Assembly (NCBI GenBank): GCA_947627955.1
Contig: CANQXZ010000001.1
Location: 120,477 to 184,476 of the forward strand
Source: an uncultured Clostridia bacterium
GTDB taxonomy: Bacteria > Bacillota > Clostridia > Christensenellales > Borkfalkiaceae
Length of the DNA stretch: 64,000 nucleotides
Direction: 5' to 3'
A program made the translations under genes and the position numbers. Under the pieces are notes generated by a model, which made no database searches, had not been told where the DNA came from, and saw only the letters and a program-made list of their open reading frames with translations. Position 1 is the first letter of the stretch; each line of letters opens with the position of its first letter. This document shows, in pieces, positions 38,002 to 64,000 of this stretch.

Positions 38002-38010
38002 TTTATCCTC

Positions 38011-42755: not shown

Positions 42756-42756
42756 T

Positions 42757-44699: not shown

Positions 44700-44722
44700 A
44701 AGTTAACCTACCTTTGTGAAAA

Positions 44723-45067: not shown

Positions 45068-45083
45068 TAATGTGCCCCAATAT

Positions 45084-46091
45084 CTACCAACATATAAAAA
45101 CCATCTTATCCTTTATTGAAATGGACATCTGCAATGATTTATCTGTTGCATTCAATACCATCTTGCAAGCATTACTAATGCTTTGCATTAACTCACTATC
45201 ATTTATTGGAATATGCGAATAAAAATTAAAAGAATGCTTATCTGCAATAATACTAGCCTTCAGCTCATGTTTGAATTCATACAGCGATGATATCGTTTTT
45301 TCGGTGTGAAGGCTATCAATATTGCTGGCTTGCATTTGTTGAGAGCAATGGCTCCAAGTAGAATCGCAACGTGGCGTAGTTTTTCTGTCCCATTGGTGAT
45401 TAACCGCAATCTCTTCGTCAGTATAATTTAAATACAAATAGCTAAATGGTTTATACTTTTTTAAGTTTGCACCGAGCATAAAAGTTGCATCAAGATGATA
45501 AGTTTTATTATCTATCCATACTATATTCCAAGAATGAGGTCCACTCATCCCAGTATTATTATCAGTTGCCTCGCCATTAACAACTATAGATTCAATTCCT
45601 ATCCAACTAAGAACTAGCTTAACGGCCTTTGCAATACCACTACATTGACCTTTATTACTAGCAAGAACCGATGCGGCATTCTGATTATATTGATTATTAA
45701 TTTCATAGGTTGTATGTTGAAGCACATAGTCACAAACGGTACACACCTTTTTATAGTCACTTACACCTTTGGGTATATATGTGATTATTTCTGATTTTAC
45801 CCTGTCAATTTCCGTATTAATATTCCTAATTTGAAGTCGGTTATAAATATTATGTATGATTAACTCTGTGCAAAAACCTTGTAACCCGAAGTGTTGTGAG
45901 ATTTGCGGATTGAAAGGTATATGATAAAGTTCAGGATGGTCATTGTTTATAGCGACATAGATTTCAGATATTTCATGCGGAGCAAGACCATTGCAAAATA
46001 CGTGCTCTTTATATTTAGAGAATGCCTCACACATGTTCTCGTAATATTTCCTCTGATTGAGCGTTAATTTCATTTTCCAATATTCTTGCAT
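45084..46091 (-). CDS. transglutaminase-like cysteine protease superfamily protein
   Basis: 335 aa. The Cys-His-Asp arrangement is GQCSGIAKAV, GPHSWNIVWI and YHLDATF. Confidence 0.75.
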   Translation of the reverse strand: MQEYWKMKLTLNQRKYYENMCEAFSKYKEHVFCNGLAPHEISEIYVAINNDHPELYHIPFNPQISQHFGLQGFCTELIIHNIYNRLQIRNINTEIDRVKSEIITYIPKGVSDYKKVCTVCDYVLQHTTYEINNQYNQNAASVLASNKGQCSGIAKAVKLVLSWIGIESIVVNGEATDNNTGMSGPHSWNIVWIDNKTYHLDATFMLGANLKKYKPFSYLYLNYTDEEIAVNHQWDRKTTPRCDSTWSHCSQQMQASNIDSLHTEKTISSLYEFKHELKASIIADKHSFNFYSHIPINDSELMQSISNACKMVLNATDKSLQMSISIKDKMVFICW

Positions 46092-47586: not shown

Positions 47587-49032
47587 CTAATACTTTTTCT
47601 TTACACTAATAATATAATTAATCACACCGTAAGCAATAAGGGATAGAACAATAGCCCCTAAAATAATCCATACCCAAATCATTGTATCGAAAATTTCTAA
47701 ACTGCTAGAAAAATATGGTGTAGGATACCCATGTGATGTATCTTTCCAATTTGCAAAAGATTTTGGTAAATCAGTGCTAGTTACATTCTGCTCAGGCAAG
47801 GTATATATCCCTTCTACTTCGTTTGAATTATTGCCAATAATATTGCAACTGCTAGGCACTATATAGCAGTCGCTGAACTGAGCGGAATCAACAAAAGCAG
47901 TTAACTCCCCAACATACCTTAAACATTTGCCGTTTGATATTCCGGAGCATTCAGCATATACTAAACATGAATTAATAGTTGAATTTTTTACTCTACCAAC
48001 CAAGCCTCCTATTACTTGAAATGGTGTTCCACAGAGAGATGTTTTGGTTAAATCTGATTGTACTCTGCTTCCATAGGTGACACAGTTCTCAATTATTCCA
48101 TCCTCAGAATATCCAACAATACCACCACACAATGTTCCAAATGCACTTTTACCTGATACCCCATCCCCAAAAACGCTAAATCTATTTTTTAAGTAAATAG
48201 ATTGATCTATTATCGAATTATCAATTCCATTGTAATATTCACAACCAGAAATTAAACCTCCTTTATTTAGCCCAACAAGTCCACCAATATAAATATTGCT
48301 AACTGACCTATTACCTCCCATTACTATATCTTCTCGGATACCGGCATTCCATGCTTGATAACAATTTATAATGCTACAATTTAAAATCTCATTATAGTTA
48401 TAGCCAGCAATTATTCCAAAAGCGTTCGTTGAGCTGTTGGAAAAATTGAATTCACAAGATTCAAATCGCAAATTACAAATTTTTCCGTAATTGGAGCCAA
48501 CCAAGCCAAAACCCGAACTAGAATCTTTAACATTTGAAATTTTAAGATTTTTTATTGTATGTCCGTTGCCATCAAAAGTCCCATAATAATTCTGCAATTG
48601 TCCTAACCACGTGGGATTTTGCCCTTCAAAATCAATGTCGCTTTCTAAACAGTAATCTAATTTATCAGCATACGGTAAATTGCAAATTACATTAAATTCT
48701 TGAGAAGACTTAATATAAATTGTCCGCTTAGGAATTGTAGTTAAGCATATTATCATCATTGCAATAGCTATTAGAGTCAAAACTATAGTTGAGATAAACA
48801 TTATGATTTCTACTATGCCTTCACGGTCACTTGTATCCGGGAAAAAAGTAGCGGATAAATAAAATATAACCATACCAATAATCAATACAACACTTACTGG
48901 TATGAATATCCCTAAGATTCCACCAAAATGAATGCCTCCAAAAATTAGCGCAGGGCGAACCAAAGCAATTGCCATAACTATTATCATAGCAATAGGTGGA
49001 ATTAAAAATAGTTCTTTAATAGTCTTGATCAT
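47587..49032 (-). CDS. membrane protein with GLUG-repeat ectodomain
   Basis: 481 aa with about 3 N-terminal TM helices and one C-terminal TM helix. Five GLUG-like repeats: GLVGSNYGKICN, GIIAGYNYNEILNC, GGLVGLNKGGLISGC, GGIVGYSEDGIIENC and GGLVGRVKNSTINSC. Confidence 0.7.
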   Translation of the reverse strand: MIKTIKELFLIPPIAMIIVMAIALVRPALIFGGIHFGGILGIFIPVSVVLIIGMVIFYLSATFFPDTSDREGIVEIIMFISTIVLTLIAIAMMIICLTTIPKRTIYIKSSQEFNVICNLPYADKLDYCLESDIDFEGQNPTWLGQLQNYYGTFDGNGHTIKNLKISNVKDSSSGFGLVGSNYGKICNLRFESCEFNFSNSSTNAFGIIAGYNYNEILNCSIINCYQAWNAGIREDIVMGGNRSVSNIYIGGLVGLNKGGLISGCEYYNGIDNSIIDQSIYLKNRFSVFGDGVSGKSAFGTLCGGIVGYSEDGIIENCVTYGSRVQSDLTKTSLCGTPFQVIGGLVGRVKNSTINSCLVYAECSGISNGKCLRYVGELTAFVDSAQFSDCYIVPSSCNIIGNNSNEVEGIYTLPEQNVTSTDLPKSFANWKDTSHGYPTPYFSSSLEIFDTMIWVWIILGAIVLSLIAYGVINYIISVKKKY

Positions 49033-49055: not shown

Positions 49056-50531
49056 TTATATTTTTCTGCCCCACTTCTTTTTTAGATCAATAGAAGCACT
49101 TGCTTTATCAATAAGCCACAATGCTGGCTCTTCAACACCATCAGGATTAAATTGACTGCCATTTTCAACGTGACCTAGCGCACTGCATGTAAAAAATTGA
49201 ATACTTTTAAATTTAGACTTTAAGCTATTTAAGAAGTTATCCTCCTCATATTCAATCAAAAACTGCTCACAAACTTTATTTATGGCCTCATACTTTGATT
49301 TCATATTATGAATTTGCATATACTTGCGTATAGCTTCATTACCGATTTTTTCATCAAGCCCAGGAATATCGCATTTTGTAAATACAACAGCAACATCTGT
49401 CTTAATCATGTTCTTTGGCGTTAGGCAATTCATATTTTCTAGCGTTTTAATAAGTACATCAAGTACTTCATCCATTCCGCGTTCGCTAGCGCCATATTTA
49501 GATAAACTAATTTTACTTTCAACTTCATCTCTATACCTTCTTAAAGAAAGCGGATCTACGACCATAAGGAAGGCATTTGCATATTTATAACCGATTTGTT
49601 TTCCAATCTCGCTATTGCTTTCATAGGCTTCACCTGCGACATCGCAAATAGATATTAAATTTTTTACCTTTTCTCCGTGGGGTGTAAGATAAAACTGATA
49701 ATATCTCATTCTTGTATCGTTAGTTTTTTCAGGTAGTCTACCGTCACCCATATTACGTTTATTGTTCTCATAATCATCACCTAAAGCCAAATTAGGTTTA
49801 TACTCAAAGTCCAACCCATTTTCGGAAGCATTTTTTTCGATTTGAGAAATTGCCATGCTAATATAACACGTTTTCCCGGCACTTGGTCCCCCAACAACAG
49901 GAATGGGAATATCTACTTGAAGCGGACCACCGAGCTCATATCCACACTTTGGACATACCCATTTACCAGATTGTTTGTGCCTGCCATTAAAAAATGTAGT
50001 TTTAAGTTTGCGACCACATTCACATTCACGCCTTAAAACTCCATATCTGCTAGGAGCAAGTAAAGAATGTTTTGCGCCACAAGTGCATATGTATGCTGGC
50101 AAAGCATATCTTTCTTGACAATTAGGACAACTTGTCGAAATTTTTTTAATACTTCTGTAAATCCAATCAAAAAACGCAATGATTAAGTATAAAATATAAA
50201 ATATTGTCATGAAAATCAGCAACACAATAGCTTGTACAACAGAAATAATTGCACAAGGAACTGGTGTTAAGATAGTGCTTAACAATAGCCAACCGAAGGA
50301 TAGCCCAAACATAAACATGGCCGCAACAGCTTTAAAAAAGCTAGCGAAAGGTTCATATAATGTGACAACATTTTTTACATTTCTTCCTAGTTTTCTTAGA
50401 GCTGATAAAACTGAATATGCACTTTTACTGATTATTCTGCCACACTGGATAAAAGTATTTGCAATTGTCTTTCCAAATTCTATATATCCATCTCTAAAGA
50501 AATAATTAATTTTTGCTGGCTGCTTTTCCAT
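49056..50531 (-). CDS. membrane-anchored double-zinc-ribbon P-loop GTPase (paralog 1)
   Basis: 491 aa with N-terminal TM helices and CPNCQER..CTCG..CECG..CPKCG ribbons. G1 is GGPSAGKT (49895-49866), G3 DVAGE, G4 TKCD and G5 CSALG. Confidence 0.75.
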   Translation of the reverse strand: MEKQPAKINYFFRDGYIEFGKTIANTFIQCGRIISKSAYSVLSALRKLGRNVKNVVTLYEPFASFFKAVAAMFMFGLSFGWLLLSTILTPVPCAIISVVQAIVLLIFMTIFYILYLIIAFFDWIYRSIKKISTSCPNCQERYALPAYICTCGAKHSLLAPSRYGVLRRECECGRKLKTTFFNGRHKQSGKWVCPKCGYELGGPLQVDIPIPVVGGPSAGKTCYISMAISQIEKNASENGLDFEYKPNLALGDDYENNKRNMGDGRLPEKTNDTRMRYYQFYLTPHGEKVKNLISICDVAGEAYESNSEIGKQIGYKYANAFLMVVDPLSLRRYRDEVESKISLSKYGASERGMDEVLDVLIKTLENMNCLTPKNMIKTDVAVVFTKCDIPGLDEKIGNEAIRKYMQIHNMKSKYEAINKVCEQFLIEYEEDNFLNSLKSKFKSIQFFTCSALGHVENGSQFNPDGVEEPALWLIDKASASIDLKKKWGRKI

Positions 50532-50550: not shown

Positions 50551-50862
50551 TTATATGTACATTAAAACTAGTCTGTAAATTTCGTAAGCAACAGGGGCAA
50601 TAATTGCCAAAACAACTAACCCTATCACAATAAATAAGGCTACTTTCATATAAATATTACTTACGCTATGATTAATTCCAACCACACTATTTTTAATGGC
50701 GGAAACTAATCCGACAAAAATGCTTATAAACAAACCTATTACAAGTGATCCAACAAAAACCACTACTACGGTTGCAATTAGTATTGCTAATATTTGCAAC
50801 CCTAAGTACAGGAAGAATAATCCTCCTAGACAGCTACCTACTCCATCATCATCATCTGACAT
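50551..50862 (-). CDS. small three-TM membrane protein with acidic N-terminus
   Basis: 103 aa, MSDDDDG followed by three hydrophobic helices. Its start lies 5 nt downstream of the stop of the 894-aa gene. Confidence 0.5.
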   Translation of the reverse strand: MSDDDDGVGSCLGGLFFLYLGLQILAILIATVVVVFVGSLVIGLFISIFVGLVSAIKNSVVGINHSVSNIYMKVALFIVIGLVVLAIIAPVAYEIYRLVLMYI

Positions 50863-50867
50863 AATTT

Positions 50868-53552
50868 TTACTCCTTATTATTTTTATTAAATATTTTTTC
50901 AAAGAAACTCATATGTTCCTTTAAATATTTATCAATGAAATTTTTTACTTTAGGCAAATCCGGTTCTGATATTAGTTCACATATCTTTTTAAAAAGCTTC
51001 TTATAATCTCCTCTACTTAAAGTATCTACATATTTTGAAACAAAAAATATAAGATTACTTGCTAATCTATCGTTCACATTAAAGGCATACGCAAAAATAT
51101 CAGCTAAAATTTCGTAATATTCTTTGTTGCTTAGCTTTTCAAGTGGATTTAATATTGCCGCTATTGAACCATTAAGATATGATATCGGCCTTTCAAAAGT
51201 AGCTCTTAATAGTGTGTTGCTCTTGTATCCTTTTTCCTTATATTCGCAATACAGTTGCAATATATCAATAAAATAATTTGAAATGAACTGTTCCAATTGA
51301 AAATCATTAAGCCAAGAATACAGAGTATTCTGTTTTATACAATTGGTTAACAGATCTTCACCCAATTTTCCTCTTACAAGTAATATTGTCCGTAAGATAG
51401 AATAATTGTCTGGAATCTTAAAATGTGCATCACGCAACCTTACGTTTAACTCATTTATGCTACGTAAATAAGTAGGAGCATAATTAATTAGCTCTTCCAT
51501 TGATAATGAAAAAATCTCCTGATTTAAGTAATCTAAAATCAAAATCATATCAGCAAAAGAATTCTCAAAATCTTTTAATTGATCGTAGAATTTTATACTT
51601 TCGGCTATTTTATCTTTTCCTTTAAGATTACCAAGATATAATTTTATTTTTTGTATATATATGCCACTATCATATCCAGTTCGATAATATTTATTAAAGT
51701 AGCTATCTAATGAGCGGAAATTAACCTTTGTTGCGGTTTTAAAAACATAAGCTTCTTTCCGGAATAAGAAATCTCTAAAATCATTCTTTTCTTTATTAAG
51801 GTTCTCTACACTTTCAAATAAGCTCTTATATATGTCTGAATACTTTATATATAAATCCATGAAATTTGCATTTCGCATATTATTGCTGATAAATGTAGTT
51901 ATCAAGTGTGTCTTTTCTTGTTCATTTTCTAGTGAACATATAACGCTGAAAGCAAATTCCATCGACTTTACATCTGAAATTTGGCATTTTACAAAATCGC
52001 CTAAAGCGTTCATAATTAACCAATTTAATGCTTTGTCGCCTAACTGTTTAGCGCAATTCAAATATAATTTGAATTCTTCCAAGGATCTATGAGTAATGGA
52101 TTTTCGAATTATTTTATCCATTAACATATATGCTTTATTGTTTTCCGCTTCACTCAAATTTAATGCAATCGAATTTACCAATGCATCAAAGACATAATAT
52201 AGTTCATTTGTGCCGTTTCGAGCCTCAATGTATCTTTCCCATTCAGAATTGTTTACAACCATTAAGGAATAATCATTCCAAGGGAACGGAGCCTTATTCT
52301 TAATTTCAGCTAAGCTTGATTGTGGAGTGCCCGAATATATATTTACGCCAAAAAGCGTCAACTCGGAAAAATAACGATTCATTATTGAATCTTTTATATA
52401 TCGGTCGGAAAAATCGTAAGTAAATTTTATGAGCGAGAGAATTTCATTCCCTTTACCCCACTTCCCAGAAATGATTACTTCATTATAAAGATTAAAAGCA
52501 ATTTCTTTTTCATTAATATAATGATATTTCAAAGCAATTTCTAAAGCTGATGAATATTCCGACGCACCTGTGAACCACCTGAAGTTTTTCTGATTTAAAT
52601 AATAAACCGCCAATGCTATATCAATATGGCATTGTGTCATTGCTATTATATTGTTTACCGACTCTATTTTCTTTAAAATGGCAAATAAAGTCGATGACTC
52701 AAGTGACTGCATAACATCGTTTATATATCTACCTAATACTAATTTTGAACATATTTTCTTTTCAAAATTAAAAACAATGTTTCCTGCCGCAAGTTCATCT
52801 TGGTAGTTAAATGTTGAACCAATCATGCTTGCAAATATATTTCGAATTTTAATGGGCGGCATGCCTGTAGTTGTTAGGGTATAATCCAGCTGAGTAGAAT
52901 ACTGCGTACAAAAAGTTGCATCATTAAAATAACTTGCAGGCAAAAGTGTACCTATAATGGCATAGAGTAGTCTGATATTTTCTTCCGTGTCATTAAAAGT
53001 AATCCTATCTAATGAACCATGTGTATTTATCACCGCTTGCAATAAAGATGCTATATCTTGTTTATATCCACCAAAAGCAAGTTTTTTAATTGCTTCTTCA
53101 CTTGCAATACTTTGTGTATTTAATTCAATAGGTGGAAGCGATGCGGGAGCAGGATCATCGTGCCATTCTTTATATGAGAGACTTGATTTAAATGCTTTAT
53201 GTTCAAAAATGCAATAAGGATTAAACCCTTGTAATTCATCAAATATAAAAGCGTGAATGATGAAGTTTCCGTTACGGCTATCTTGATCGCTATAAACTTT
53301 GCCAATATAGCTTGATTGCGCGACACAACGTCTCCCAGACGAAAGAATAAAATAGGCATACTTCTTTGGGAAAAAGGCCTTAATTTCCTCATCTGTTGGT
53401 TCATATGGCGCATTTGGAGCCTTTTTATAGGACATAAGTTTGATAATTTCATCACATTCTGATTTTGTGACATTGTCAGATTTTGCCCATACACTAAATG
53501 CTCCGGATTTATCTTTTCCACAAGCCGTATAAATCATTTGATAGGCTAACAT
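50868..53552 (-). CDS. large all-helical protein, N-terminus resembling GTPase-associated protein 1 (GAP1)
   Basis: 894 aa behind an AAGGAG RBS. MLAYQMIYTACGKDKSGAFSVWAKS follows the QxxYTSxxxGxxGxxGFQxxAxS-type opening I associate with GAP1-N domains. This comes from memory of a motif, not a search. It lies directly downstream of a Zn-ribbon GTPase. Confidence 0.45.
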   Translation of the reverse strand: MLAYQMIYTACGKDKSGAFSVWAKSDNVTKSECDEIIKLMSYKKAPNAPYEPTDEEIKAFFPKKYAYFILSSGRRCVAQSSYIGKVYSDQDSRNGNFIIHAFIFDELQGFNPYCIFEHKAFKSSLSYKEWHDDPAPASLPPIELNTQSIASEEAIKKLAFGGYKQDIASLLQAVINTHGSLDRITFNDTEENIRLLYAIIGTLLPASYFNDATFCTQYSTQLDYTLTTTGMPPIKIRNIFASMIGSTFNYQDELAAGNIVFNFEKKICSKLVLGRYINDVMQSLESSTLFAILKKIESVNNIIAMTQCHIDIALAVYYLNQKNFRWFTGASEYSSALEIALKYHYINEKEIAFNLYNEVIISGKWGKGNEILSLIKFTYDFSDRYIKDSIMNRYFSELTLFGVNIYSGTPQSSLAEIKNKAPFPWNDYSLMVVNNSEWERYIEARNGTNELYYVFDALVNSIALNLSEAENNKAYMLMDKIIRKSITHRSLEEFKLYLNCAKQLGDKALNWLIMNALGDFVKCQISDVKSMEFAFSVICSLENEQEKTHLITTFISNNMRNANFMDLYIKYSDIYKSLFESVENLNKEKNDFRDFLFRKEAYVFKTATKVNFRSLDSYFNKYYRTGYDSGIYIQKIKLYLGNLKGKDKIAESIKFYDQLKDFENSFADMILILDYLNQEIFSLSMEELINYAPTYLRSINELNVRLRDAHFKIPDNYSILRTILLVRGKLGEDLLTNCIKQNTLYSWLNDFQLEQFISNYFIDILQLYCEYKEKGYKSNTLLRATFERPISYLNGSIAAILNPLEKLSNKEYYEILADIFAYAFNVNDRLASNLIFFVSKYVDTLSRGDYKKLFKKICELISEPDLPKVKNFIDKYLKEHMSFFEKIFNKNNKE

Positions 53553-53600: not shown

Positions 53601-54716
53601 TTATTTTTTAACTGTCTGAATATAGTGATTTTCCGCTAATAACCATAAAAGCGGATCCAGAACGCGCCTAGGATTAATCTTGTTACCTGATAGCTTTGTC
53701 CCATTAGGAACACCTCCTAGTGCCGTCAAGCCAAAGAACGCATATTTTTCAAACTGCTTCATTTGCTGCACAAGCTCGGCATCCAGCCAGTTTTCCAAAA
53801 GATCTTGCATTTCAATATTGACGCTCTCGAAATCTGTTTCAACAAATACCCCACGCGCAAGATGTTCTGATTCCGAATGTAAACAACTATCTTCCTTTAA
53901 AAGATTGTACTGTTCCAACGCATCTATTTTTGTGAATGCCAAAGCAAGAGGAATCTTAATGGTTCCTCGTATATTCTTTACATCTCTGATATTTTGGACT
54001 ATTCGACTCAGAACTTCAACAACATCTGTATTTTGTGGAGGAAGCGACATTTTACCCTGAAGCTTCTCTCTAATTGTTGATACTTGCAAAGGATCAAGCA
54101 ACAAAATGATACCATCAGCATTAGGAATATAACGATTATTGACTAGCATATCATCGGTGGAGTCAAGATTTTCACCTGCAGTATCATAAAAGGACAATGC
54201 TGCCACTTTTTTAATATGATTATTTTTGTCCATAAAGCGCAAAGGAAAAATCAACGGAGGGACGTCATCTTGACTTGTGGCGTCAACTACAGAACCGTGT
54301 TTAAAAAGCGGCTCATAATAGTGGTCATTATAATACTGCCGAGACTCCTCACTACTAGCTAAACTTAAGGTACAATTAAAACTAGACGTCATCTTTCGCT
54401 TAATTTCGTTGATAAGTACGCCTATGTAATTGGACTTGCCGGAAGCCTTCGCACCAAGTAGCGCAACAGACAAGCTCTCTTCATTAAGAAAATCAGATGG
54501 AATTTCTTTATTAACAACACTGCAAAATACTGACTTTCGAGCATCTTTGCATTTCATGCATTTTTGCTTATCTTTATTTGGAATCCAGCCAGCTGCATCT
54601 TTGACTACGGTTGAAATACACTTATCGGGTTTCCCGGGAACATTATATGAGCATTTCAAACCACTGGAAATAATGTCATGCTTACCGTAACAATATGGAC
54701 ACGTAAATTTTTTCAT
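53601..54716 (-). CDS. soluble zinc-ribbon P-loop GTPase (TRAFAC-like motif order)
   Basis: 371 aa with CPYC...C...C...CMKC ribbons. G1 is GAKASGKS (54455-54432), G3 YDTAGE, G4 TKID and G5 LTALGG. Confidence 0.8.
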   Translation of the reverse strand: MKKFTCPYCYGKHDIISSGLKCSYNVPGKPDKCISTVVKDAAGWIPNKDKQKCMKCKDARKSVFCSVVNKEIPSDFLNEESLSVALLGAKASGKSNYIGVLINEIKRKMTSSFNCTLSLASSEESRQYYNDHYYEPLFKHGSVVDATSQDDVPPLIFPLRFMDKNNHIKKVAALSFYDTAGENLDSTDDMLVNNRYIPNADGIILLLDPLQVSTIREKLQGKMSLPPQNTDVVEVLSRIVQNIRDVKNIRGTIKIPLALAFTKIDALEQYNLLKEDSCLHSESEHLARGVFVETDFESVNIEMQDLLENWLDAELVQQMKQFEKYAFFGLTALGGVPNGTKLSGNKINPRRVLDPLLWLLAENHYIQTVKK

Positions 54717-54738: not shown

Positions 54739-55479
54739 TTATCGATTAACTGATTGGACCCATTGACGATCTCGCTTATTTTCTTCATCTTGTGCCTGAA
54801 TTTCTTCTTCAGTAGCACCTCTTTCTCTCATACTTTCGATTTTTTTATCTCCCTGATATTTAATCAAGTCAATCTCATCTTGCTTCACTTGCTTTGTATA
54901 TTTCTCTGAAGCAATTCTATCTTCATCACTGATACTTTTGCCTTTGGCTTCACGTTCCGCTAATTTTTCATTGATTTTATTTCGCATATCAATGTCATGC
55001 GATTGCAAATCAACTTTTTCTTGATGAACAGTATCTCGAAATTCAATCCCTTCTTCCTTCATCTGATAGCTTAGCTGCTCTTGTGATGCAATATTTTTTT
55101 CATATTGCGCTCTTAATGAGTCAAATGTCTTTGAATCACCACGTTCAACAGCTTTTGCCATATCTCTAGAAATAGCCTCATTTTTTGCATCAAGCTGCTC
55201 ATAAGCCTGCTTTTTTTGTTCGCCGAAAAATTGAAGCCTTTGCTGATTATTCATATCCCACATCTTACTTTTTTGTTCATCAATCGCCATTTCAGCTTTT
55301 TCGTAATCGCGGGAATTGGGGTCTATTTTTTTTAGTTCCTCTTCCTGTGCCTCAATATTTTTTTTATAATCTTGAGTGGCCGCATATGCTTCCGGAGCAT
55401 TACGGCTAGCCATGGCAGAGTTCCAACGTCTCTCATATATTTCGGAATATTTCTGATATTCTTTCATCTTATTTGTCAT
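54739..55479 (-). CDS. highly charged coiled-coil protein, unknown function
   Basis: 246 aa, rich in K, E, Q and D throughout. No TM helices or enzymatic motifs. Confidence 0.6.
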   Translation of the reverse strand: MTNKMKEYQKYSEIYERRWNSAMASRNAPEAYAATQDYKKNIEAQEEELKKIDPNSRDYEKAEMAIDEQKSKMWDMNNQQRLQFFGEQKKQAYEQLDAKNEAISRDMAKAVERGDSKTFDSLRAQYEKNIASQEQLSYQMKEEGIEFRDTVHQEKVDLQSHDIDMRNKINEKLAEREAKGKSISDEDRIASEKYTKQVKQDEIDLIKYQGDKKIESMRERGATEEEIQAQDEENKRDRQWVQSVNR

Positions 55480-55491: not shown

Positions 55492-56691
55492 TTAAAATAC
55501 ATTTAATCTAGTATGCTCGTTCGTCTTCTTTGAATAATAAATTGCCTGATTTTCCGGAAGTTGCGCAAATACATCGGGTAAATATACACGTTCCTTCTCA
55601 GTTGTAATCGATGTACTACTTTGCTTACTAGCACCACCTCTTCCATTTAAGCGATCCCAAAATGTTGGATTACTTACTCCTTTTGTTACAGTTTCTTTTT
55701 GTCTTTCATATGTACCAAAAAATTCTGAACAAAATTCCTTATTCTTGTTAGAGTTCTGTTTAAAGAAAAAATAACTGTCGGCATACTCGATCCACTCATT
55801 AGACTGTTCAATTAAGTTACTCAAATCTTGTATAGTATATAAAACATTGCAACTCTTTCCACCCTTTATAAGCTTCTGTATCCCAGAAGCAATTAATATA
55901 TCATTAGGTGTTCCATCAACAAGCACATTAACACTAGACACACTTGACGTGGCAACATTAAAACGCCCTATTGCATCTATAATAGCTGACATAATAAGAA
56001 TGGACTCCTCATGTTTTGCAGAAAAGTCTAAGCTTATTTCTATAATTGGTTTGCTCTTAAAAATCTGTTCTAAGCTCTTGTTTCCTGATAATACATAGCC
56101 AGAAACATTATTTGCAAAATCATAGAAATATGCCTCAAGTTCTCGAATTTCAGCCCTAATGCTATTTAAGAACCGATCATTTCTAGCCTGCTCAACACCA
56201 GTACTATATTTCATATTAAGATCTTCAATTTCTTCAATAGGAAAATCCAACAAATTATTTATTTTAACTGTTTTACCAGCTTTTTTAGCAAGATTTCTAA
56301 GAAGTGATATATAATTCTGAAAGCTCATTCTTTTGCTTTTATCAACTTCGTTATACATATCAAAAAGCTTGATAATATAAGCATTAATATCTGTATCAGT
56401 CATACCTGAGAAAATATCAATTTGCTCAGTTGTACTATTATCTGTGCAATCAACATCAAATATTAATCTGCTTGATGTTGTAATTGAAGGATATGATGAA
56501 AGCCCTGCTACTTGATCACGAAATATAATTACACCATATCCTCTGTTTATAGAGTCAATAGCATAATTTCTCATAATAACTTCTGCCCCTTGTTTTGAAG
56601 CGCCAGAAATTAATACATTTCCTAATGATGCATCAAGTGAAATTGTTCGACTACTTTTTGTAGCACCTCTAATAAAGTTTAATAATCCCAT
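55492..56691 (-). CDS. TraD/VirD4-like (FtsK-HerA superfamily) paralog with degenerate Walker motifs
   Basis: 399 aa, alignable by eye with the upstream ATPase. VLISGASKQGAE replaces LIGGIGSGKT and VLVDGTPND replaces FVCDEFKLLP. The C-terminal YTIQDLSNLIEQ region is conserved. Confidence 0.55.
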   Translation of the reverse strand: MGLLNFIRGATKSSRTISLDASLGNVLISGASKQGAEVIMRNYAIDSINRGYGVIIFRDQVAGLSSYPSITTSSRLIFDVDCTDNSTTEQIDIFSGMTDTDINAYIIKLFDMYNEVDKSKRMSFQNYISLLRNLAKKAGKTVKINNLLDFPIEEIEDLNMKYSTGVEQARNDRFLNSIRAEIRELEAYFYDFANNVSGYVLSGNKSLEQIFKSKPIIEISLDFSAKHEESILIMSAIIDAIGRFNVATSSVSSVNVLVDGTPNDILIASGIQKLIKGGKSCNVLYTIQDLSNLIEQSNEWIEYADSYFFFKQNSNKNKEFCSEFFGTYERQKETVTKGVSNPTFWDRLNGRGGASKQSSTSITTEKERVYLPDVFAQLPENQAIYYSKKTNEHTRLNVF

Positions 56692-56709
56692 GCTTCCACC
56701 GTTTTGTAC

Positions 56710-58053
56710 TTATTTACGTGATTTAAATTCGCTAAAACCAAATTTAAATGGTTCAGCACTATTAATTGAAATTATAGCTTCACCAAGTTTTAGGTTGGCA
56801 ACATCCCAGTCTTCGACAACATGTGCTGTCGCAATAGTTTCTTGTACTGTTGTTGACTTATATGTAGTACATTTTCGATTTTCGCCTGACCGCTCTTTAA
56901 TGTAATTGCGAGTCGAATAATCACTAACCTTAAAAGCAAATAAATTTAGAAATCCAGAGAAAATGTTTTTTGCCATGTTTTCTCCATAAATTTCAATTAT
57001 TTGATCAACATTCTGGACACCTATCATGAATTTAATGCCTAAACTTCTACCAAAATTAACAGCATCATCAATATGTTGCAAGTTGGGTAGAAGTTTAAAT
57101 TCATCACATACGAAAAACACATTGCCATCGCTTTTTGAGCGGCATAAGGCTTCTTTTATTGCCAAATCAAATAATAAACTGTAAATAGGTGTCAACATAC
57201 CGCCAATGCCAATGTCATATTCAATAAATATTTTTTTACCACCCTTATTCCGTACTAATTCACGAATTGAAAGAGTCCCTCTTTTTGCAAAATTTCCCAC
57301 AAAAACAGACCTAACCACTTGCTGAAGTTCTGCTAAAACGCCAAGTGCTTGCCCCATTGCATCCAATGGTATATAGCTCTTCATTGCAGCGAAATTATTG
57401 TACATACTAAGAATACTATGATACCACTGAATATTCTCTTTCTTCATAGCTTCAGAAATAGTATAATTATCGCTTTGTACTGTTCCTCTCCCTTTCATCA
57501 ATACAAAATGATATAGTATAGCGGACATTATGTCTTTAGCTGCTTGAGGGAAAAAAGCATTATCGCCTGCTTTTTTCAATTTGTCGGCAAATAATGAATT
57601 TGATATCTCGATTACATCTTCTTTTAAACCAACAGAGCTATCCAGCTCATTAATGATGTTCCAATAATCAGTTCCAGTGCTACCACATGCAGAGGAATCG
57701 TTGCTAATCACTACGTCGCCTGGTCTATAGAACTCTTTATAAAAGTCTCCTTTAGTATCGAAAATAATCATTACATCACTAGATGACAATTGCGGTACTA
57801 TATTTTGAAGTATTTGATTGAATGTATTAGTTTTACCTGAGCCTATCCCTCCAATAAGCATAAGATGTTGACTTAAAAGTTTTTCAGTCAAAACAAATCT
57901 ATCATTAGCACCATTTCCATTCTTTCCATTAAAAACGATATTGATTGGATGTGGGCATTGCGGTGATGACTGTTGCATAGTTTGCGCCGCTAACGGGACA
58001 TTCAAATTAAGTTCCTGTCCTTCACATACTCGCACTGTCGTCTGGGCCATCAT
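56710..58053 (-). CDS. TraD/VirD4 (type IV coupling protein)-like P-loop ATPase without TM anchor
   Basis: 447 aa with Walker A GGIGSGKT (57852-57829), IIFDTKGDFYKEFY, Walker B FFVCDEF and GVQNVDQIIEIYGENMAKNI. Confidence 0.75.
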   Translation of the reverse strand: MMAQTTVRVCEGQELNLNVPLAAQTMQQSSPQCPHPINIVFNGKNGNGANDRFVLTEKLLSQHLMLIGGIGSGKTNTFNQILQNIVPQLSSSDVMIIFDTKGDFYKEFYRPGDVVISNDSSACGSTGTDYWNIINELDSSVGLKEDVIEISNSLFADKLKKAGDNAFFPQAAKDIMSAILYHFVLMKGRGTVQSDNYTISEAMKKENIQWYHSILSMYNNFAAMKSYIPLDAMGQALGVLAELQQVVRSVFVGNFAKRGTLSIRELVRNKGGKKIFIEYDIGIGGMLTPIYSLLFDLAIKEALCRSKSDGNVFFVCDEFKLLPNLQHIDDAVNFGRSLGIKFMIGVQNVDQIIEIYGENMAKNIFSGFLNLFAFKVSDYSTRNYIKERSGENRKCTTYKSTTVQETIATAHVVEDWDVANLKLGEAIISINSAEPFKFGFSEFKSRK

Positions 58054-58829
58054 GATCTTTTGATTCCCCCTGAATTGTTTTGTCCACTTAGTTCATTAGA
58101 TTTTGACACACCATTCAATCCAATATCCTGCATATTGACATTGTTTCTATTTTGATTCTGTAATTTAGCATAATCTTCAGAAACTTGTTTATCAATGTCT
58201 TTTGATGGCGAAGCAGTATAATGAAATCTTTCATTAGCCTGTTTATCGTAAAGTTCTATGTATTTTACTTCTTCCTCAGAATTTACTATACCTTTGGCAC
58301 CAACATATACTGATGTACACTCCATCACATTGCCTGTGTTGGGATTTTTAATTCCATTAAATTTTTCATAAAGTTCTGGACGATCCATTTTCTTTACTTC
58401 TTTAATTTCTGTATAGAACTCTCTTTTCAACTTTCTATCGTCCATATACATACTTCCGGGAATTCGGGTTCTTTCAGTTCCTGCCCTCATATTGTAATTT
58501 TCTCTTATAACGTTTGCACGCTTTTCCCGCAAGTCATCATGCGCTTGCGATAAAATATCATCATAAGATGTTCCCTTATATGAACAAGCATAATCTCCAT
58601 GCTTGTCTTCAAAATCCATCCCTACAATCTGTCTGTTCTTGTTGTCATCATAAATCCATACTCTCGTAGCCGTGAGTACACCATCCTTGCCTGGACGAGG
58701 ATCTCTAATTGTTGTATCAATATGACCATTAGCACTCTCTATGATATTTTCATGTGAAGAACCAATGCCATTATAACTATAACAACCCATTTCGGAATCG
58801 GATAATGGTGATTCATAATAATAAGCCAT
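58050..58829 (-). CDS. hypothetical protein, translationally coupled to the TraD-like ATPase
   Basis: 259 aa with no recognisable motif. Its stop overlaps the downstream ATG (ATGA at 58050-58053). Confidence 0.6.
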   Translation of the reverse strand: MAYYYESPLSDSEMGCYSYNGIGSSHENIIESANGHIDTTIRDPRPGKDGVLTATRVWIYDDNKNRQIVGMDFEDKHGDYACSYKGTSYDDILSQAHDDLREKRANVIRENYNMRAGTERTRIPGSMYMDDRKLKREFYTEIKEVKKMDRPELYEKFNGIKNPNTGNVMECTSVYVGAKGIVNSEEEVKYIELYDKQANERFHYTASPSKDIDKQVSEDYAKLQNQNRNNVNMQDIGLNGVSKSNELSGQNNSGGIKRS

Positions 58830-58869: not shown

Positions 58870-61800
58870 CTACAGTTTTACCACTTCTTTAAGATGAACT
58901 AAATTTGTTTCCTCATTTAGAAATAGAGCATATTTCATATTGGCAGCAGCTGGATTTACCATTATTGAGACTTTTGCTGTATATTTTTTTGATAATAATC
59001 CTTTTTTTAAAACTATTTTATCAATACGCTCACATAGCTTACCAGCATTTTTGTTCATAGGGCGTGGATAACCTTGCATAATAAGAAGTTTTGGAATCTC
59101 AGTTGCTTTATCAGATTCGAATGTGATATTAATCTTAAATGGTTTAATTGTTGATACTACATAATCAATGCTATATAATACCGTAATAGCCTCTCTATAA
59201 TCAATTGGCGGTTCAAGCTTAATTGCAGGCGAATAAGAAATGTTCCCATCTTCTTTGAATGCAACGAAAATGGTTATATAATTTACGGTATCTGTTTTAA
59301 GCTTGATTTCAAATTTACCACTTTTAGAAAAATCTTCGACCTTATAAGAGAATTTCTCTCCACCCCCATCGATATTTTCTATGTATCGATCATGCCCAAT
59401 TCTAACAATAATAGATTGTGCCTTGGGGTGTAGTGCGCCACTTACGGTAACTGTTCCATTATTAATGGAATGCGTTAGCTTTTTAATTCCCTCAATTGTG
59501 TTAATAAGGCGCGGTGGAGATACAACAAAAAGTTGCTCTGTACTTACAATAGGATAAACATAAAATATATTGCCAGCCGATAATGAAAAAATTATTTCGC
59601 CATTCGCATTAGCTGAAGATTCTATTTGAGCCAATCCCTTGCAAATTGAGTTGAAATCTAAATACTTGAGTGGTGTATTTGTAGGAATTGATAGTTTCTT
59701 GTTAGAAACATATAACTTCACTTTCCCAGCATAACCTGTAGCGCAGGTGAATACATATCTATTTGATTCAATTGGCTCTATCCTTACATCTTCAAGTGGA
59801 GTGGCTTTTTCGTAAGGCTTAAATACCGCGCAAATTCCGCGCGACTGGACAAGTTTACCCTTTAAATCATAATTACAAATAACAAGATATGCACTTTGTC
59901 CGTCGCATTTATTATCGGTAAAACCATTTAAAGAACATTCAACCCGAACACCTTCGCCTGAACGAGTAGGTGCTATTGTGCCGCTGTTTTTCCATACATC
60001 AATTGATTTTACATTTTGAGGAGCTTCCCAAATAACCTTAATACCACCGTCAACAACTTCCTGTTGCATGTTTGAAACATCAGCAAAAATAATCGCTGAT
60101 TCGCTTGTGACTGCAATTGAAGATTTTACCCCGTACCGCTCAACAAAAACAGCATAATAATACGGTGTAGCAGATACAATATTTACATCTTCAAAAAATT
60201 TAACTGAAAGACCACAATCTACAAGGGCACCATCTTCAGCAGAGATTGGAGCAACACCTATTTTCTTGATTATAGTGTAAGAAATAAATTCCTGTTTTGC
60301 ATTATCATCCCACTCTAAACGTACCTTTCCTTTTTCAGTAGTAATACGAAGGTTGGTTACTGCTTGGGGTGGGATCTTCTGCATTATTTGGCGAGCATCA
60401 GCATTATCATCACAGATATCAATTGCTTTTGCTGCAGTTGAAATTGCAAGCGATATATTACCTTGAGCCAAATACTGTTTTGCGGCATCAACTTGTCGTT
60501 GAGCATTTTGTACAACGGCAGAAATATCTGACACCAATTTGCGTGAATTATCAATATTGTAAGTGCTATATTTTACATTTAATGATTTAGCAATAGCTAG
60601 AGCTGATTGATAACAACGCTTAGCTATCATTTGTTGAATCTTTGAAACGTCTTCTTTATACTTAGCGCCTGTCGTTTCCTCTTGTCGTACTCTTGACTGA
60701 ATAACACTCTCATATTCTGCAACTTTTTTTGCTACGGTTGAATCAGCATGAGTAGCGTAATTGGGAACAACGTTTTTTACCTCCAAAAATACCGATTGTA
60801 AATCGCTTATCTCTACCATCGGGCGACTTAAAAGTTTATCAATTTTTTCGCAACACTGATTAAACATATCGTGGGCACGATGTGTTGCACCACAAGTAGG
60901 GCAGCCTTTATCCTCTTTGGTAAAAGGTGTCTTCTGTTTGCAGTTCCAACAAATGACTTCCAAAGGTTTCCCACAATGAGGACAACTCTTTGCACCCTTT
61001 ATATATAATTTTCCGCAATCCGGATAAGGACAAAATTCAAAGTTATTACCCTCCGTTTTCCCAACAATGGTGATTTGAAAGTATTTGCATCCTATGGCGA
61101 GAATTCTTTCCGCCTCATCAATTTGAACCTTTAAAAGTGCTATAACCGTGGAAGTATAATTTTTATACTCATCCATGGTCATTTCTTTAATGCCAAAAGA
61201 CTTCCTTTTCTCAAAATCACTCCACACGTCGTTTTTGAGAACAAGATATTGATCATAAGTTCTGCGTGCCTCCTTGCTATCCAAAAGTAATTTTTTTGCT
61301 GTAGCGCAAAGTTGACTAATAGCCTGTTTCCGCTTAAGGTCATTCGTCTTACTGCTGTCGCTATACATTTTATCTGAGGCTGCTTGTATTTCAGAATTAG
61401 ACGATGTGGATTGTACTCCTAAAAAATCATATAAATCTTTTTTCCCAAGAGTATCTAATCTCTTTTCTGTCTGTTGATAATCCGAGAATGGTATACTCGC
61501 ATCAATATTATCTATAATCTTAACACCCAACCCACTTAAATAGGAAATTGCATTTAACAGTTCTGCCTCAGAAAAAAAGATTATAGGCTTATTCGCTGTA
61601 TTGCAGATATCAATTACTTCACTTTTTAAAAGGGTTTTTCTTGTTTGACAAAGAATCTCAATTACACCAACGGCTTCTTTAAGTTTATATGCTTTGGCAT
61701 CCGCAGCTTCTTTGGCGCGCCCGCCTCGCTCAGGAATGTATTTTCCTGTGGCGGCATCATAAACGGAATCATTGCACATGATTTCGATGGCGTCTGTTTT

Positions 61801-61977
61801 TAGCTCAATCAGCCTTCGAGTCAATATGTCCCCCTTGGGACTCCCGGTAACTGTTTTTATTTTTGCATCAATTTTATTCTTGTCTGTTTCAGACAGATCA
61901 ATCTTAAAAGCAATGAAATAATTATATTCGGGATTTTTCAGCTCTTCTGCAGTTCTAAAGGGGCTAACCTGTGCCAT
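58870..61977 (-). CDS. 1035-aa multidomain protein: J-domain-like segment without HPD, double zinc ribbon, helical repeat, FN3/Ig-like beta domains
   Basis: KDLYDFLGV (61440-61414) ... EARRTYDQYL follows the J-domain helix I-IV pattern, but no HPD is visible. Also CPYPDCG..CPHCG..CWNCK..CPTCG ribbons, a TPR-like AKQYLAQGNISLAIS segment, and repeated V.L.W...... segments. Confidence 0.6.
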   Translation of the reverse strand: MAQVSPFRTAEELKNPEYNYFIAFKIDLSETDKNKIDAKIKTVTGSPKGDILTRRLIELKTDAIEIMCNDSVYDAATGKYIPERGGRAKEAADAKAYKLKEAVGVIEILCQTRKTLLKSEVIDICNTANKPIIFFSEAELLNAISYLSGLGVKIIDNIDASIPFSDYQQTEKRLDTLGKKDLYDFLGVQSTSSNSEIQAASDKMYSDSSKTNDLKRKQAISQLCATAKKLLLDSKEARRTYDQYLVLKNDVWSDFEKRKSFGIKEMTMDEYKNYTSTVIALLKVQIDEAERILAIGCKYFQITIVGKTEGNNFEFCPYPDCGKLYIKGAKSCPHCGKPLEVICWNCKQKTPFTKEDKGCPTCGATHRAHDMFNQCCEKIDKLLSRPMVEISDLQSVFLEVKNVVPNYATHADSTVAKKVAEYESVIQSRVRQEETTGAKYKEDVSKIQQMIAKRCYQSALAIAKSLNVKYSTYNIDNSRKLVSDISAVVQNAQRQVDAAKQYLAQGNISLAISTAAKAIDICDDNADARQIMQKIPPQAVTNLRITTEKGKVRLEWDDNAKQEFISYTIIKKIGVAPISAEDGALVDCGLSVKFFEDVNIVSATPYYYAVFVERYGVKSSIAVTSESAIIFADVSNMQQEVVDGGIKVIWEAPQNVKSIDVWKNSGTIAPTRSGEGVRVECSLNGFTDNKCDGQSAYLVICNYDLKGKLVQSRGICAVFKPYEKATPLEDVRIEPIESNRYVFTCATGYAGKVKLYVSNKKLSIPTNTPLKYLDFNSICKGLAQIESSANANGEIIFSLSAGNIFYVYPIVSTEQLFVVSPPRLINTIEGIKKLTHSINNGTVTVSGALHPKAQSIIVRIGHDRYIENIDGGGEKFSYKVEDFSKSGKFEIKLKTDTVNYITIFVAFKEDGNISYSPAIKLEPPIDYREAITVLYSIDYVVSTIKPFKINITFESDKATEIPKLLIMQGYPRPMNKNAGKLCERIDKIVLKKGLLSKKYTAKVSIMVNPAAANMKYALFLNEETNLVHLKEVVKL

Positions 61978-62005: not shown

Positions 62006-64000
62006 TTACTTTAAAGAATTGCCAACGACTTCTGTCGCAATAGATGATGCCACTTCTTTAAATGTGGCAGAAAGTTGACTCAAATCAACTTTCTTCCCTT
62101 TCCCACTGGAAATGCGACTGAGAAATGCCTCATCTGCATCACCAATGCCAATACCATAAATAATAATCCCGTCAGCTTTAGCTCGATCTGCAGCGGTTTC
62201 CTCTGTTGATTGATCATTCCAATATCCATCAGTAAGAACGACAATGACTCTTGGACAATCGCGTGTAAATTTCTTGTAATTATTGTTTATTGGCGTTTCT
62301 GCATTGCAATATCCAACATCATTAACATCAACGTCATCAATTGCATGATATAAGCGTCTCTCATCATTCTCCCATTTGCATTTATATTGTGAACGATCGG
62401 CAAAACTGATAACAGAAATGAAGACTCTGTTTAAGTCAAACTCCTTCACAAAATCCTTTGCTGCGCGTCGCGCTTCTCTAATTCTATTACCACTCATACT
62501 GCCAGAAGTATCTATCATTAGCATAATCTCAATTCTGCTTTTACGTTTTGCCTCCTCCTCTGCTTCTTTCTTTTCGCGCTCTAAACGTGCTATAATCTCG
62601 CTCATAGTTTCATTAGTATTCTCACGAGTAGATGATAAAACTATGCCATTATCCAAGCAAGCATTAACTTCAACAACACCATTTGAGTTATATAAAAAAT
62701 TAACTTTAATCTTGCTCTTATTGTCTTTTGGCATGCCAGTGATTGAATAAGCACCAATAATATCACACTCGTAAGGATCGCGAGCTTCTCCTTGCAAAAC
62801 ATACACTTGCAACTTCTCGCCTGAAAAAGTATATTCCCTACTAAACGGTTCATTGACCTTACTATTTTTTCTTATAATAATACTATTAATGTAGCTTTTT
62901 TCATCGCTTGCAAGCGCAAGCATGCCGAGACTATGTGCAGTAATATCTTGAATATCGCTATTGTGAATTGTAAGCGTAATCGGAGCCGTGGGCATAGAGG
63001 TACCGCTCGACTTGGCTGAATTGGCGGATGCAGAGCTTGCAACGGTTAACGTAATGGAATTACTCACGCAGAGTTCTGCTTGCATAGCTGCGCCTGTTGC
63101 TACTATCGTATCGACATTAATATCTTTTGTAATGGGCGGACGACCATATTCTTTGATTATCATGTCCTTGACTTGAGGCATTCTTGTTGAACCACCTACC
63201 AAAACGACTTCATCAATATTATTCCACCCAAATGGACGATTCTGGGCTTCACTAATTTCATCAAAGCAACTTTTTATCAACAGAATTGTTTCATATAGAA
63301 GACTATAGGTTTGATCATTAAAATCCTCTCGGGTAACAGTATATTTACCAAGATACCCATCGCATTGGATCGTAATAATAGTTGAAGCGACTGAGGAAAG
63401 TAACTTCTTGGCTTCCTCACACTTCACCTGTAATTCTTTAAGATCTTCTTCGTGGTCATCAATACTGACACCAAATTCAGAATAAAATTTCTCTTTAACT
63501 TGATTGATAAGCGTTTCGTCCCAGTCCTTTCCGCCCAATTGATGATTTCCGTTTGTTGCAAGAACATCAATTCGTGTTCCATTTACATTAGCAACTGTTA
63601 CATCAAATGTGCCACCACCGAGATCGTAGACAAGAACATTCTTTTCCTTACCACCTGTCAAGCCATATGCGATGATTGCCGAAGTAGGTTCATTGATTAT
63701 CTTTAAGACTTTTAACCCAGCCTTCTGACCGGCCCGAATTGTTGCTTCGCGTTGTTTATCATTAAAATAGGCAGGCACTGTAATAACCGCCCCATCAATA
63801 TCAATGCTATTGGTACTCTTTATGTCTTGAATAAGGTGTGCAAGATAAAGTCCCGACAACTCCTCAGCAGAATACTCCTGCCCATTTATGAAAGCACTCC
63901 AATTAGAATCGCCCATCATACTTTTATAAAAGGCAGCTGTATTAACATTGCCTGATTTTTGTTCATTCTTTGCATCTTCACCGACCATAATGCTTCCATT
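62006..64000 (-). CDS. Hsp70 (NBD plus SBD-beta) fused to a C-terminal vWA domain; N-terminus beyond the right edge
   Basis: AVITVPAYFNDKQREAT, IINEPTSAIIAYG, VYDLGGGTFDVT (about 63635-63601) and VVLVGGSTRMPQV. An SBD-like QVYVLQGEA segment, then vWA MIDAS MIDTSGSMSG (62518-62489). The reading frame stays open (NGSI) upstream of the listed Met. Confidence 0.9.
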   Translation of the reverse strand, partial: NGSIMVGEDAKNEQKSGNVNTAAFYKSMMGDSNWSAFINGQEYSAEELSGLYLAHLIQDIKSTNSIDIDGAVITVPAYFNDKQREATIRAGQKAGLKVLKIINEPTSAIIAYGLTGGKEKNVLVYDLGGGTFDVTVANVNGTRIDVLATNGNHQLGGKDWDETLINQVKEKFYSEFGVSIDDHEEDLKELQVKCEEAKKLLSSVASTIITIQCDGYLGKYTVTREDFNDQTYSLLYETILLIKSCFDEISEAQNRPFGWNNIDEVVLVGGSTRMPQVKDMIIKEYGRPPITKDINVDTIVATGAAMQAELCVSNSITLTVASSASANSAKSSGTSMPTAPITLTIHNSDIQDITAHSLGMLALASDEKSYINSIIIRKNSKVNEPFSREYTFSGEKLQVYVLQGEARDPYECDIIGAYSITGMPKDNKSKIKVNFLYNSNGVVEVNACLDNGIVLSSTRENTNETMSEIIARLEREKKEAEEEAKRKSRIEIMLMIDTSGSMSGNRIREARRAAKDFVKEFDLNRVFISVISFADRSQYKCKWENDERRLYHAIDDVDVNDVGYCNAETPINNNYKKFTRDCPRVIVVLTDGYWNDQSTEETAADRAKADGIIIYGIGIGDADEAFLSRISSGKGKKVDLSQLSATFKEVASSIATEVVGNSLK

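Follow-up and report, generated by a model that had tools for sequence, protein, structure and literature searches.

The question raised by this locus is what an ATPase resembling the coupling proteins of conjugation does in an operon without conjugation genes. The DNA stretch analyzed here, referred to as the window, comprises 64,000 nucleotides (nt) of contig CANQXZ010000001.1 from an uncultured Clostridia bacterium. The genes in question are two neighboring open reading frames (ORFs) on the minus strand, encoding an ATPase of the type IV coupling protein (T4CP) kind (56710-58053) and its catalytically degenerate partner (55492-56691). Based on gene order in related loci, profile searches and structure prediction, the pair is very probably an integral component of a double-GTPase (DO-GTPase)/Hsp70 system and not a coupling protein; it seems that a motor of conjugation was put to a different use. 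An earlier note, made from the letters of the window, had delimited these two ORFs and a third one upstream of them (58050-58829). All three are present on the minus strand, and every motif quoted for them was located.

The ATPase (447 amino acids, aa) carries the motifs GGIGSGKT (Walker A) at residue 68, IIFDTKGDF at residue 96, FFVCDEF (Walker B) at residue 313 and GVQNVDQIIEIYG at residue 345. Its proposed TraD/VirD4-like nature was confirmed by Pfam profile searches, in which TrwB_AAD_bind (E-value 1.7e-39), T4SS-DNA_transf (1.7e-16) and TraG-D_C (1.5e-15) matched. DUF87 covers residues 57-125 only, HerA is likewise limited to the P-loop region, and the score of FtsK_SpoIIIE falls below the Pfam cut-off. 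Within an alignment of 32 relatives showing 65-88% identity, the complete Walker A motif (G68-T75), the Walker B residues D317/E318, R336 and Q347 were invariant. Arg336 is read as a candidate arginine finger and Gln347 as a putative sensor glutamine, as judged by eye from the alignment to the ‘GRKAG’ and ‘GLQS’ segments of TrwB. The AlphaFold2 model (pLDDT 84, pTM 0.86) has TrwB as its best Foldseek match (E-value 4e-18, TM-score 0.68-0.73, approximately 410 aligned columns), with HerA, Cagbeta and the C-terminal domain of DndH ranking below, and contains a helical insertion equivalent to the coupling-protein all-alpha domain. Furthermore, the ATPase had been described as lacking the N-terminal transmembrane anchor, and the hydrophobicity scan agrees with this description: no hydrophobic N-terminal segment was found in the ATPase or in the partner, and the sole stretch of the ATPase reaching the reporting threshold of 1.6 (maximum 1.61) starts at residue 281 and represents a modelled helix inside the nucleotide-binding domain. 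Since the listed relatives are all approximately 440-450 aa long as well, the protein is regarded as a soluble, anchor-less coupling-protein homolog.

The stop codon of the ATPase gene and the ATG of the partner gene are separated by 18 nt, which hold a GGTGGA ribosome-binding site. The partner (399 aa) is predicted to be a catalytically dead version of the T4CP fold, i.e., a pseudo-ATPase. It features SGASKQGA at residue 29 and LVDGT at residue 257. Its AlphaFold2 model (pLDDT 87, pTM 0.82) matched TrwB over the full length (E-value 6.6e-12, TM-score 0.57, approximately 410 columns) and Cagbeta with TM-scores of 0.61-0.63; HerA and the DndH C-terminal domain were lower-ranked, as for the ATPase, and the order of secondary-structure elements is the same in both models. 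In a partner-family alignment of 37 sequences, whose identities to the window protein are as low as 40%, TraG-D_C was matched by 34 members (best E-value 8.9e-8) and TrwB_AAD_bind by nine. The P-loop of this family reads GxSxxGxE with G30, S32 and G35 invariant, and the Lys-Thr of an active Walker A motif occurs in no member. Moreover, the position of the Walker B acid is occupied by glycine in the window protein (VDG), and the family shows no conservation at the arginine-finger and sensor positions. The alignment nevertheless contains 29 invariant columns, a conserved C-terminal motif among them, which argues for an old, selected pseudo-enzyme instead of a decaying gene.

To place the partner more widely, its family profile was searched against 1.84 billion representative proteins at E-values up to 0.001, and 74 proteins only were matched. 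Approximately 45 of these are at least 300 aa long and without a GK[ST] Walker A motif; nearly all of them are soluble and roughly 370-450 aa in size. One further match (P0266) is soluble with Walker A intact. Nine matches, 440-711 aa in length, combine a hydrophobic N-terminal segment with an intact Walker A motif (GTTGSGKT or a close variant) at full-length E-values of 1.6e-9 to 5.6e-4, and are read as membrane-anchored coupling proteins. The same profile yielded no match among PDB sequences. Judged by family-wide Pfam matches, predicted structure and this profile search, the partner is a coupling-protein homolog.

The earlier note had also stated that the partner aligns with the ATPase and is probably its inactive paralog, and both statements held in part. 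By sequence, no significant alignment was obtained, neither with BLASTP (E-value 2.1) nor with hhalign of the two family alignments (probability 0.2%). A permissive local hhalign was not significant, yet collinear with the motifs in register, and was used for residue mapping only. It places GGIGSGKT opposite GASKQGAE (Lys74 at Ala36, Thr75 at Glu37), FVCDEF opposite VLVDGT, GRSLG...GVQN opposite GGKS...TIQD, and FAFKVSDYSTRNYIKERSG of the ATPase opposite FFFKQNSNKNKEFCSEFFG of the partner. Homology between the two proteins is visible only via predicted structure, the Pfam matches across the partner family and the partner profile reaching T4CPs. Since this profile reaches the anchored coupling proteins and not the neighboring ATPase family, the partner is neither a recent tandem duplicate nor a close paralog of the ATPase; its inactivity stands, the catalytic residues being lost across the whole family.

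In order to evaluate how firmly the pair is tied to its surroundings, related loci were collected by look-ups of close and distant relatives, and by running the ATPase alignment against one genome per species and the partner alignment against metagenomes, and all loci were then searched with the window proteins and a hidden Markov model of the partner. The gene order is the same in all 25 partner-bearing loci: Hsp70, Hsp70 fused to a vWA domain, a counterpart of the 1035-aa window protein, a variable slot, ATPase, partner, sometimes a 246-aa protein, one or more DO-GTPases and GAP1-N2. Across these loci, partner identity to the window protein spans 41-100%. The ATPase gene directly precedes the partner gene in every locus whose contig includes the upstream sequence, and Hsp70 was found wherever the locus extends far enough upstream. 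Loci L001-L003 additionally encode GrpE and two further Hsp70 proteins upstream, giving three Hsp70 genes in all. No Pfam family of the type IV secretion system (T4SS) was detected within 10 kb on either side of the pair in L001-L005. In a variant represented by L096 and L103, the operon stops after GAP1 with a leucine-rich-repeat protein gene, which in L096 is followed by the chromosomal gyrA gene; the genes inspected downstream of the L096 operon include no recombinase.

Per-locus identities to the window proteins amount to 65-85% for the ATPase, 49-82% for the 371-aa DO-GTPase, 49-77% for Hsp70-vWA, 41-70% for the partner, 33-62% for the 1035-aa protein, 29-37% for the transglutaminase-like protein described below and 20-42% for GAP1, so that the ATPase gene is the most conserved of the system. 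Fixed position and these identities together indicate that the pair is a constant core part, and neither a variable effector nor a remnant of conjugation. The placement of the pair in a Hsp70/GTPase operon and not in a T4SS module, as proposed previously, is thus kept in 25 of 25 loci, and the suggested reuse within a conflict system is in line with this fixed place in the GAP1-N2/Hsp70 operon, including the variant beside gyrA.

The operon itself matches, by its predicted domains, the GAP1-N2 type, Hsp70/GrpE theme, of the GTPase-centric systems defined computationally by Kaur, Burroughs, Iyer and Aravind (eLife 2020, PMC7159879, sections 27 and 29). According to the text of that study, GAP1-N2 systems occur in Firmicutes and feature many transmembrane components; their DO-GTPases possess a Walker B glutamate, often accompanied by zinc ribbons or transmembrane segments, with GAP1-N2 encoded downstream of the DO-GTPase. 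The same text describes the Hsp70 theme by Hsp70 with GrpE nearby and a fast-evolving FNIII-repeat protein fused to DnaJ or TPR (PMC7159879). In the window, where all operon genes are on the minus strand, a Hsp70 nucleotide-binding domain fused to vWA (62006-63988; Pfam HSP70 3.7e-86, VWA 1.8e-19) is encoded farthest upstream, its N-terminus lying past the window end. The following 1035-aa double-zinc-ribbon protein (58870-61977) takes the position of the FNIII-repeat component. Pfam detected DZR (4.5e-5) in it, and neither FNIII repeats nor a DnaJ domain. By eye, its residues from approximately 180 to 245 (‘DLYDFLGVQ...ARRTYDQYL’) resemble a J domain lacking the HPD motif.

Downstream of the pair, a charged 246-aa protein without family assignment (54739-55479), coiled coil by eye, is encoded, which is present in L001-3, L006-9, L011 and L092-95 and absent from L004, L010, L012 and L096-103. 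Next comes a DO-GTPase of the Double-GTPase 2 family with an N-terminal Cys-rich, zinc-ribbon-like region (53601-54716; DO-GTPase2 9e-9, 35.8 bits vs a cut-off of 27; DTAGE), directly followed by the GAP1 protein gene (50868-53552), whose product contains the GAP1-N2 domain (PF20013, E-value 1.5e-15, 57.9 bits vs a cut-off of 24). Further genes encode a 103-aa transmembrane protein (50551-50862), a 491-aa zinc-ribbon DO-GTPase with transmembrane segments (49056-50531), a 481-aa transmembrane protein without family (47587-49032) and a second, near-duplicate DO-GTPase of 470 aa, also with transmembrane segments (46164-47576). DO-GTPase2 (PF19993) scored above the Pfam cut-off in three genes, with E-values of 1.7e-14 and 1.4e-10 for the 491-aa and 470-aa copies, and all three carry the Walker B glutamate (DxxGE), present as DVAGE and DIAGE in these two copies. 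Their C-terminal halves are near-identical and they flank the 481-aa membrane protein, which has the look of a local duplication; the close relatives L001-3 possess a single copy of the DO-GTPase duplicated here. The operon continues with a 335-aa transglutaminase-like protein (45084-46091; Transglut_core 1.7e-9), a homolog of which occurs in nine related loci and is absent from L096 and L103, a 114-aa protein (within 43779-46091) and a multi-transmembrane protein of 306 aa (43779-44699). Pfam detected no nuclease, methylase, helix-turn-helix (HTH) or other DNA-binding domain in the operon.

The 259-aa ORF upstream of the ATPase (58050-58829, minus strand) had been described as translationally coupled to it. 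The 4-nt overlap of its stop codon with the ATPase start (ATGA) was read directly, with GGGGGA a few bases upstream, and the coupling is real in the window; conservation of the arrangement was not observed, the protein occupying the variable slot of the operon. This slot is empty in L001-3, holds a Sel1-like protein gene in L004 and, in most of L096-L103, genes for an 85-aa polar, helical-looking protein and a 108-aa protein. The 259-aa protein matched neither a Pfam nor a PADLOC family, and homologs in the large database were not found. Its N-terminal part of approximately 105 aa reappears in related loci as separate proteins of 142-162 aa. Residues 1-105, with the motif RDPRPG...GMDF.D..G.Y.C.Y.G.Y, represent a system-specific small domain without Pfam family, which shifts its position among related operons (L001, 20601-21029; L004, 3692-4156; L094, 8167-8655). 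The protein is an accessory component and not a fixed third member.

Concerning the wider setting, ordinary chromosome of approximately 50% GC content, encoding leuS, mutS2, uvrC, copA, asnS, ackA and lysA, spans the window start to about 37.6 kb, and is followed up to the window end by a low-GC island (approximately 35% GC) in which every gene lies on the minus strand. Three serine recombinases (37678-41468) are encoded at the island end, just inside the GC drop, two of them large (38011-39723 and 39720-41468) and the other a small resolvase. They are accompanied by an uncharacterized 201-aa protein and a sigma-70 region-4 protein (both within 37678-43185). GC drop and recombinases indicate that the DO-GTPase operon rides on an integrative island. 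A D-Ala-D-Ala carboxypeptidase-like gene (35713-36873), named from its translation, adjoins the island, and no tRNA gene was found in the window. Screening of the window proteins with Pfam revealed no T4SS genes in the interval separating the pair from the recombinases (37.7-41.5 kb), as had been claimed previously, and no genes for a VirB4-like ATPase, relaxase or channel protein in the island as far as the window end. Exact matches of the partner protein were found only on contigs of up to 7 kb, and no entry was found for the 1035-aa protein.

Beyond the Hsp70-associated operons, distant partner relatives are paired with an active ATPase (36-46% identity to the window ATPase) in L106, L108 and L111, and M48 or transglutaminase-like peptidases are encoded beside the partner in L106, L108, L109 and L111. 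In L108 (42-5427) the order is ATPase, partner, DUF2225, a 310-aa protein and a transglutaminase-like protein. In L106 (6221-14098), ATPase and partner are followed by an M48 peptidase, a transglutaminase-like protein and a 306-aa protein, and this module is part of a large island that also carries genes for TerD, Card1-like endonuclease, SUKH, kinase and TIR proteins. In L111 (447-4122), a partner-like protein with intact Walker A precedes an M48 peptidase and then the ATPase. Since L106, L108 and L111 are without DO-GTPase and GAP1 genes, the two-subunit module also exists outside double-GTPase systems.

Furthermore, a sister clade of ATPases, approximately 50% identical to the window ATPase, was found without partner or DO-GTPase/GAP1 genes in 75 species-level loci (L015-L089), nearly all labelled Clostridia or Bacillota (examples: L016, 5948-11858; L022, 5056-11290; L059, 7569-13076). 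Typically, genes for a zinc-ribbon membrane protein, a zinc-ribbon/transmembrane protein of approximately 340 aa (52 loci), a small protein and a highly variable protein precede the ATPase gene, which is often followed by that for a zinc-ribbon/transmembrane or YARHG protein. Among the domains of the variable, toxin-like proteins are Endonuclea_NS_2, ADP-ribosyl-cyclase-like and metallopeptidase-like ones, and five of 33 small proteins matched the IFS immunity factor. No T4SS families were present in the ten genes scanned around the L059 ATPase. As judged from these gene contents, the sister-clade locus may represent an undescribed locus for toxin handling or export; no publication was found that connects anchor-less homologs of coupling proteins with toxin cassettes in Gram-positive bacteria. 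The nearest plasmid relatives, at 34% identity, are anchor-less ATPases of L090 (Paenibacillus pART37, 14980-16302) and L091 (Curtobacterium pS16, 14935-16239). Both plasmids are non-mobilizable megaplasmids of approximately 0.5 Mb without T4SS genes near the ATPase, and they say nothing on function. The neighbors are mostly small hypothetical genes, and in Paenibacillus a zinc-ribbon protein is encoded directly upstream. No relative of the ATPase was found in the phage collection.

ATPases of the TrwB/FtsK/HerA type work as rings in which the neighboring subunit completes each active site, and the degenerate ATPase domains of EccC/EssC as well as the alpha subunits of F1 provide analogies for a dead ring subunit. 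Given active sites of this kind and a dedicated, co-inherited dead counterpart, the partner would most simply be a ring member that receives or regulates the substrate. The explanation considered best as a whole, and held with modest confidence to be probable on balance, is a TrwB-fold active/dead pair fixed in a Hsp70-theme GAP1-N2 system, probably forming a mixed ring, for which a protein substrate is likelier than DNA. ATPase and partner would assemble into a ring like other ATPases of this type, in this case with mixed subunits; ATP-driven pulling would come from the active subunit, and the dead subunit, which retains the all-alpha ‘receptor’ domain in its predicted fold, would serve as substrate receptor or regulator. 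The client would be handled together with the Hsp70, GrpE and vWA proteins and might then reach either the transglutaminase-like protein or membrane components. The ATPase, constant and highly conserved, would thereby represent the engine of the system, and the fast-evolving sensing or effector parts would be GAP1, the slot upstream of the ATPase and the zinc-ribbon protein. A protein substrate is favored based on the Hsp70/GrpE/vWA proteins, the recurrent peptidases and membrane proteins, the toxin cassettes of the sister clade, and the operon's lack of nuclease or DNA-binding domains. The mixed-ring, protein-handling mechanism specifically, drawn by analogy, is proposed tentatively as possible, if somewhat doubtful.

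Several observations weigh against this explanation. The characterized close structural relatives (TrwB, HerA and the DndH C-domain) all work on DNA. The best PADLOC match of the ATPase is mad8, which is gene eight of MADS, a methylation-associated defence system (E-value 4e-17, over most of the length), accompanied by weak matches to HerA and DndH; mad8 is not described in the MADS preprint and the match stays a lead only, and the MANTIS preprint, considered as a source on it, proved to be unrelated. Net charge and isoelectric point, which might have hinted at DNA binding, are near neutral for both proteins and uninformative. Moreover, the transglutaminase-like protein had to be rejected as an obligatory third member, its gene missing in L096 and L103, and no experimental test of any DO-GTPase system was found in the literature. 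The structural relatives and the mad8 match make a DNA substrate a serious rival: the ring might load on invading phage or plasmid DNA, like the HerA- or DndH-type defence ATPases, and either signal to the GTPase/GAP1 switch or pump DNA. A DNA translocase or sensor had also been suggested in the earlier note. The nearest solved structures, Cagbeta included, indeed act on DNA or DNA-processing complexes. However, an operon devoid of nuclease, methylase, HTH and other DNA-binding domains, recurrent neighbors that are chaperones, peptidases and membrane proteins, a sister clade tied to protein toxins, and HerA and DUF87 matches confined to the P-loop region make a DNA translocase or sensor rather unlikely.

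That the ATPase turns over ATP at all is argued by its invariant catalytic residues and the strongest constraint among the genes of the system, and it is on this point that a scaffold or decoy role without translocation, in which ATP binding drives the build-up of a large assembly or the dead copy imitates a target of phage inhibitors, becomes quite improbable. Sections 17 and 35 of Kaur et al. (PMC7159879) propose for these systems that inactive enzyme domains serve as decoys and that effectors build multimeric assemblies, and the partner is dead throughout its family, but its 29 invariant positions and conserved C-terminal motif fit a specific structural role better than mimicry. A third alternative, a coupling protein or decayed remnant of one belonging to a conjugative element with its T4SS past the window end, could draw on the serine recombinases terminating the low-GC island, on an island sequence seen only as far as 64 kb and on the source annotation of the relatives as ‘type IV secretion system DNA-binding domain-containing protein’. 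It is largely refuted and scarcely credible in view of the missing anchor, the constant position in the Hsp70/DO-GTPase operon, the lack of T4SS families around L001-L005, the gyrA-adjoining variant, the conservation of the ATPase as the leading gene of the system, and identities of at most 25% to genuine plasmid T4CPs.

GAP1-N2 double-GTPase systems are known from one comparative-genomics paper only, Kaur et al. (2020) being the only study found that treats GAP1-N2 or double-GTPases together with Hsp70. The results of this study add an ATPase/pseudo-ATPase pair to an already computationally defined system; the portable module behind it is possibly new as well. The Hsp70 branch of these systems always comes with a coupling-protein-like ATPase and its dedicated dead partner (25/25 loci), which makes the ATPase a concrete experimental handle. 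T4CP-fold motors also exist outside conjugation, either in active/dead pairs with peptidases or alone by toxin cassettes, which bears on the exchange of parts between secretion and defence machines. A further-reaching reading is speculative and regarded as unlikely. According to it, several unrelated Firmicute conflict systems would have taken up the pair as a portable engine for handling proteins, with a coupling protein as its ancestor and frequently an M48 or transglutaminase-like peptidase as its companion. The partner-less sister clade, encoded directly behind toxin/immunity cassettes with zinc-ribbon membrane proteins on the flanks in dozens of gut Clostridia, would then drive a toxin-delivery pathway not described so far. 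On the practical side, the type IV secretion annotation quoted above can mislead the prediction of plasmid mobility or of integrative and conjugative elements in gut Clostridia.

Compared with known systems, the window shares with the Hsp70 theme of GAP1-N2 systems the zinc-ribbon and transmembrane DO-GTPases, GAP1-N2 after a DO-GTPase, Hsp70 and many transmembrane components, with GrpE in homologous loci (PMC7159879). The text of that publication on GAP1-N2 systems, figures and source data aside, makes no mention of an ATPase of the TraG/VirD4/FtsK/HerA type, of a pseudo-ATPase or of a transglutaminase-like protein; inactive FtsK-like domains appear there as rare effectors of a different system only, VMAP-ternary. 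In HerA-based defence (Sir2-HerA, DUF4297-HerA) and in the C-terminal domain of DndH, ring ATPases of the FtsK-HerA superfamily are reused against phages, a likeness to what is proposed for the window pair, but TrwB clearly outranks them structurally and no Sir2, nuclease or Dnd partner gene is present in the window operon. EccC/EssC of type VII secretion, which exports proteins including toxins in Firmicutes, is a motor of the FtsK/SpoIIIE superfamily with one active ATPase domain and degenerate ones that bind substrate and regulate activity. Its domains form a single membrane-anchored polypeptide, which belongs to another branch of the superfamily, whereas the window encodes two soluble, TrwB-like polypeptides. 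With the T4CPs (TrwB of R388, VirD4, TraD/TraG, Cagbeta) both window proteins share the predicted two-domain fold of nucleotide-binding and all-alpha domains, and the ATPase in addition TrwB_AAD_bind, T4SS-DNA_transf, TraG-D_C and intact Walker A and B motifs, which the partner has lost. T4CPs possess an N-terminal transmembrane anchor that neither window protein has, and they are linked to a T4SS and relaxase, whereas the pair described here is a two-gene unit of one active and one dead subunit inside a chaperone/GTPase operon.

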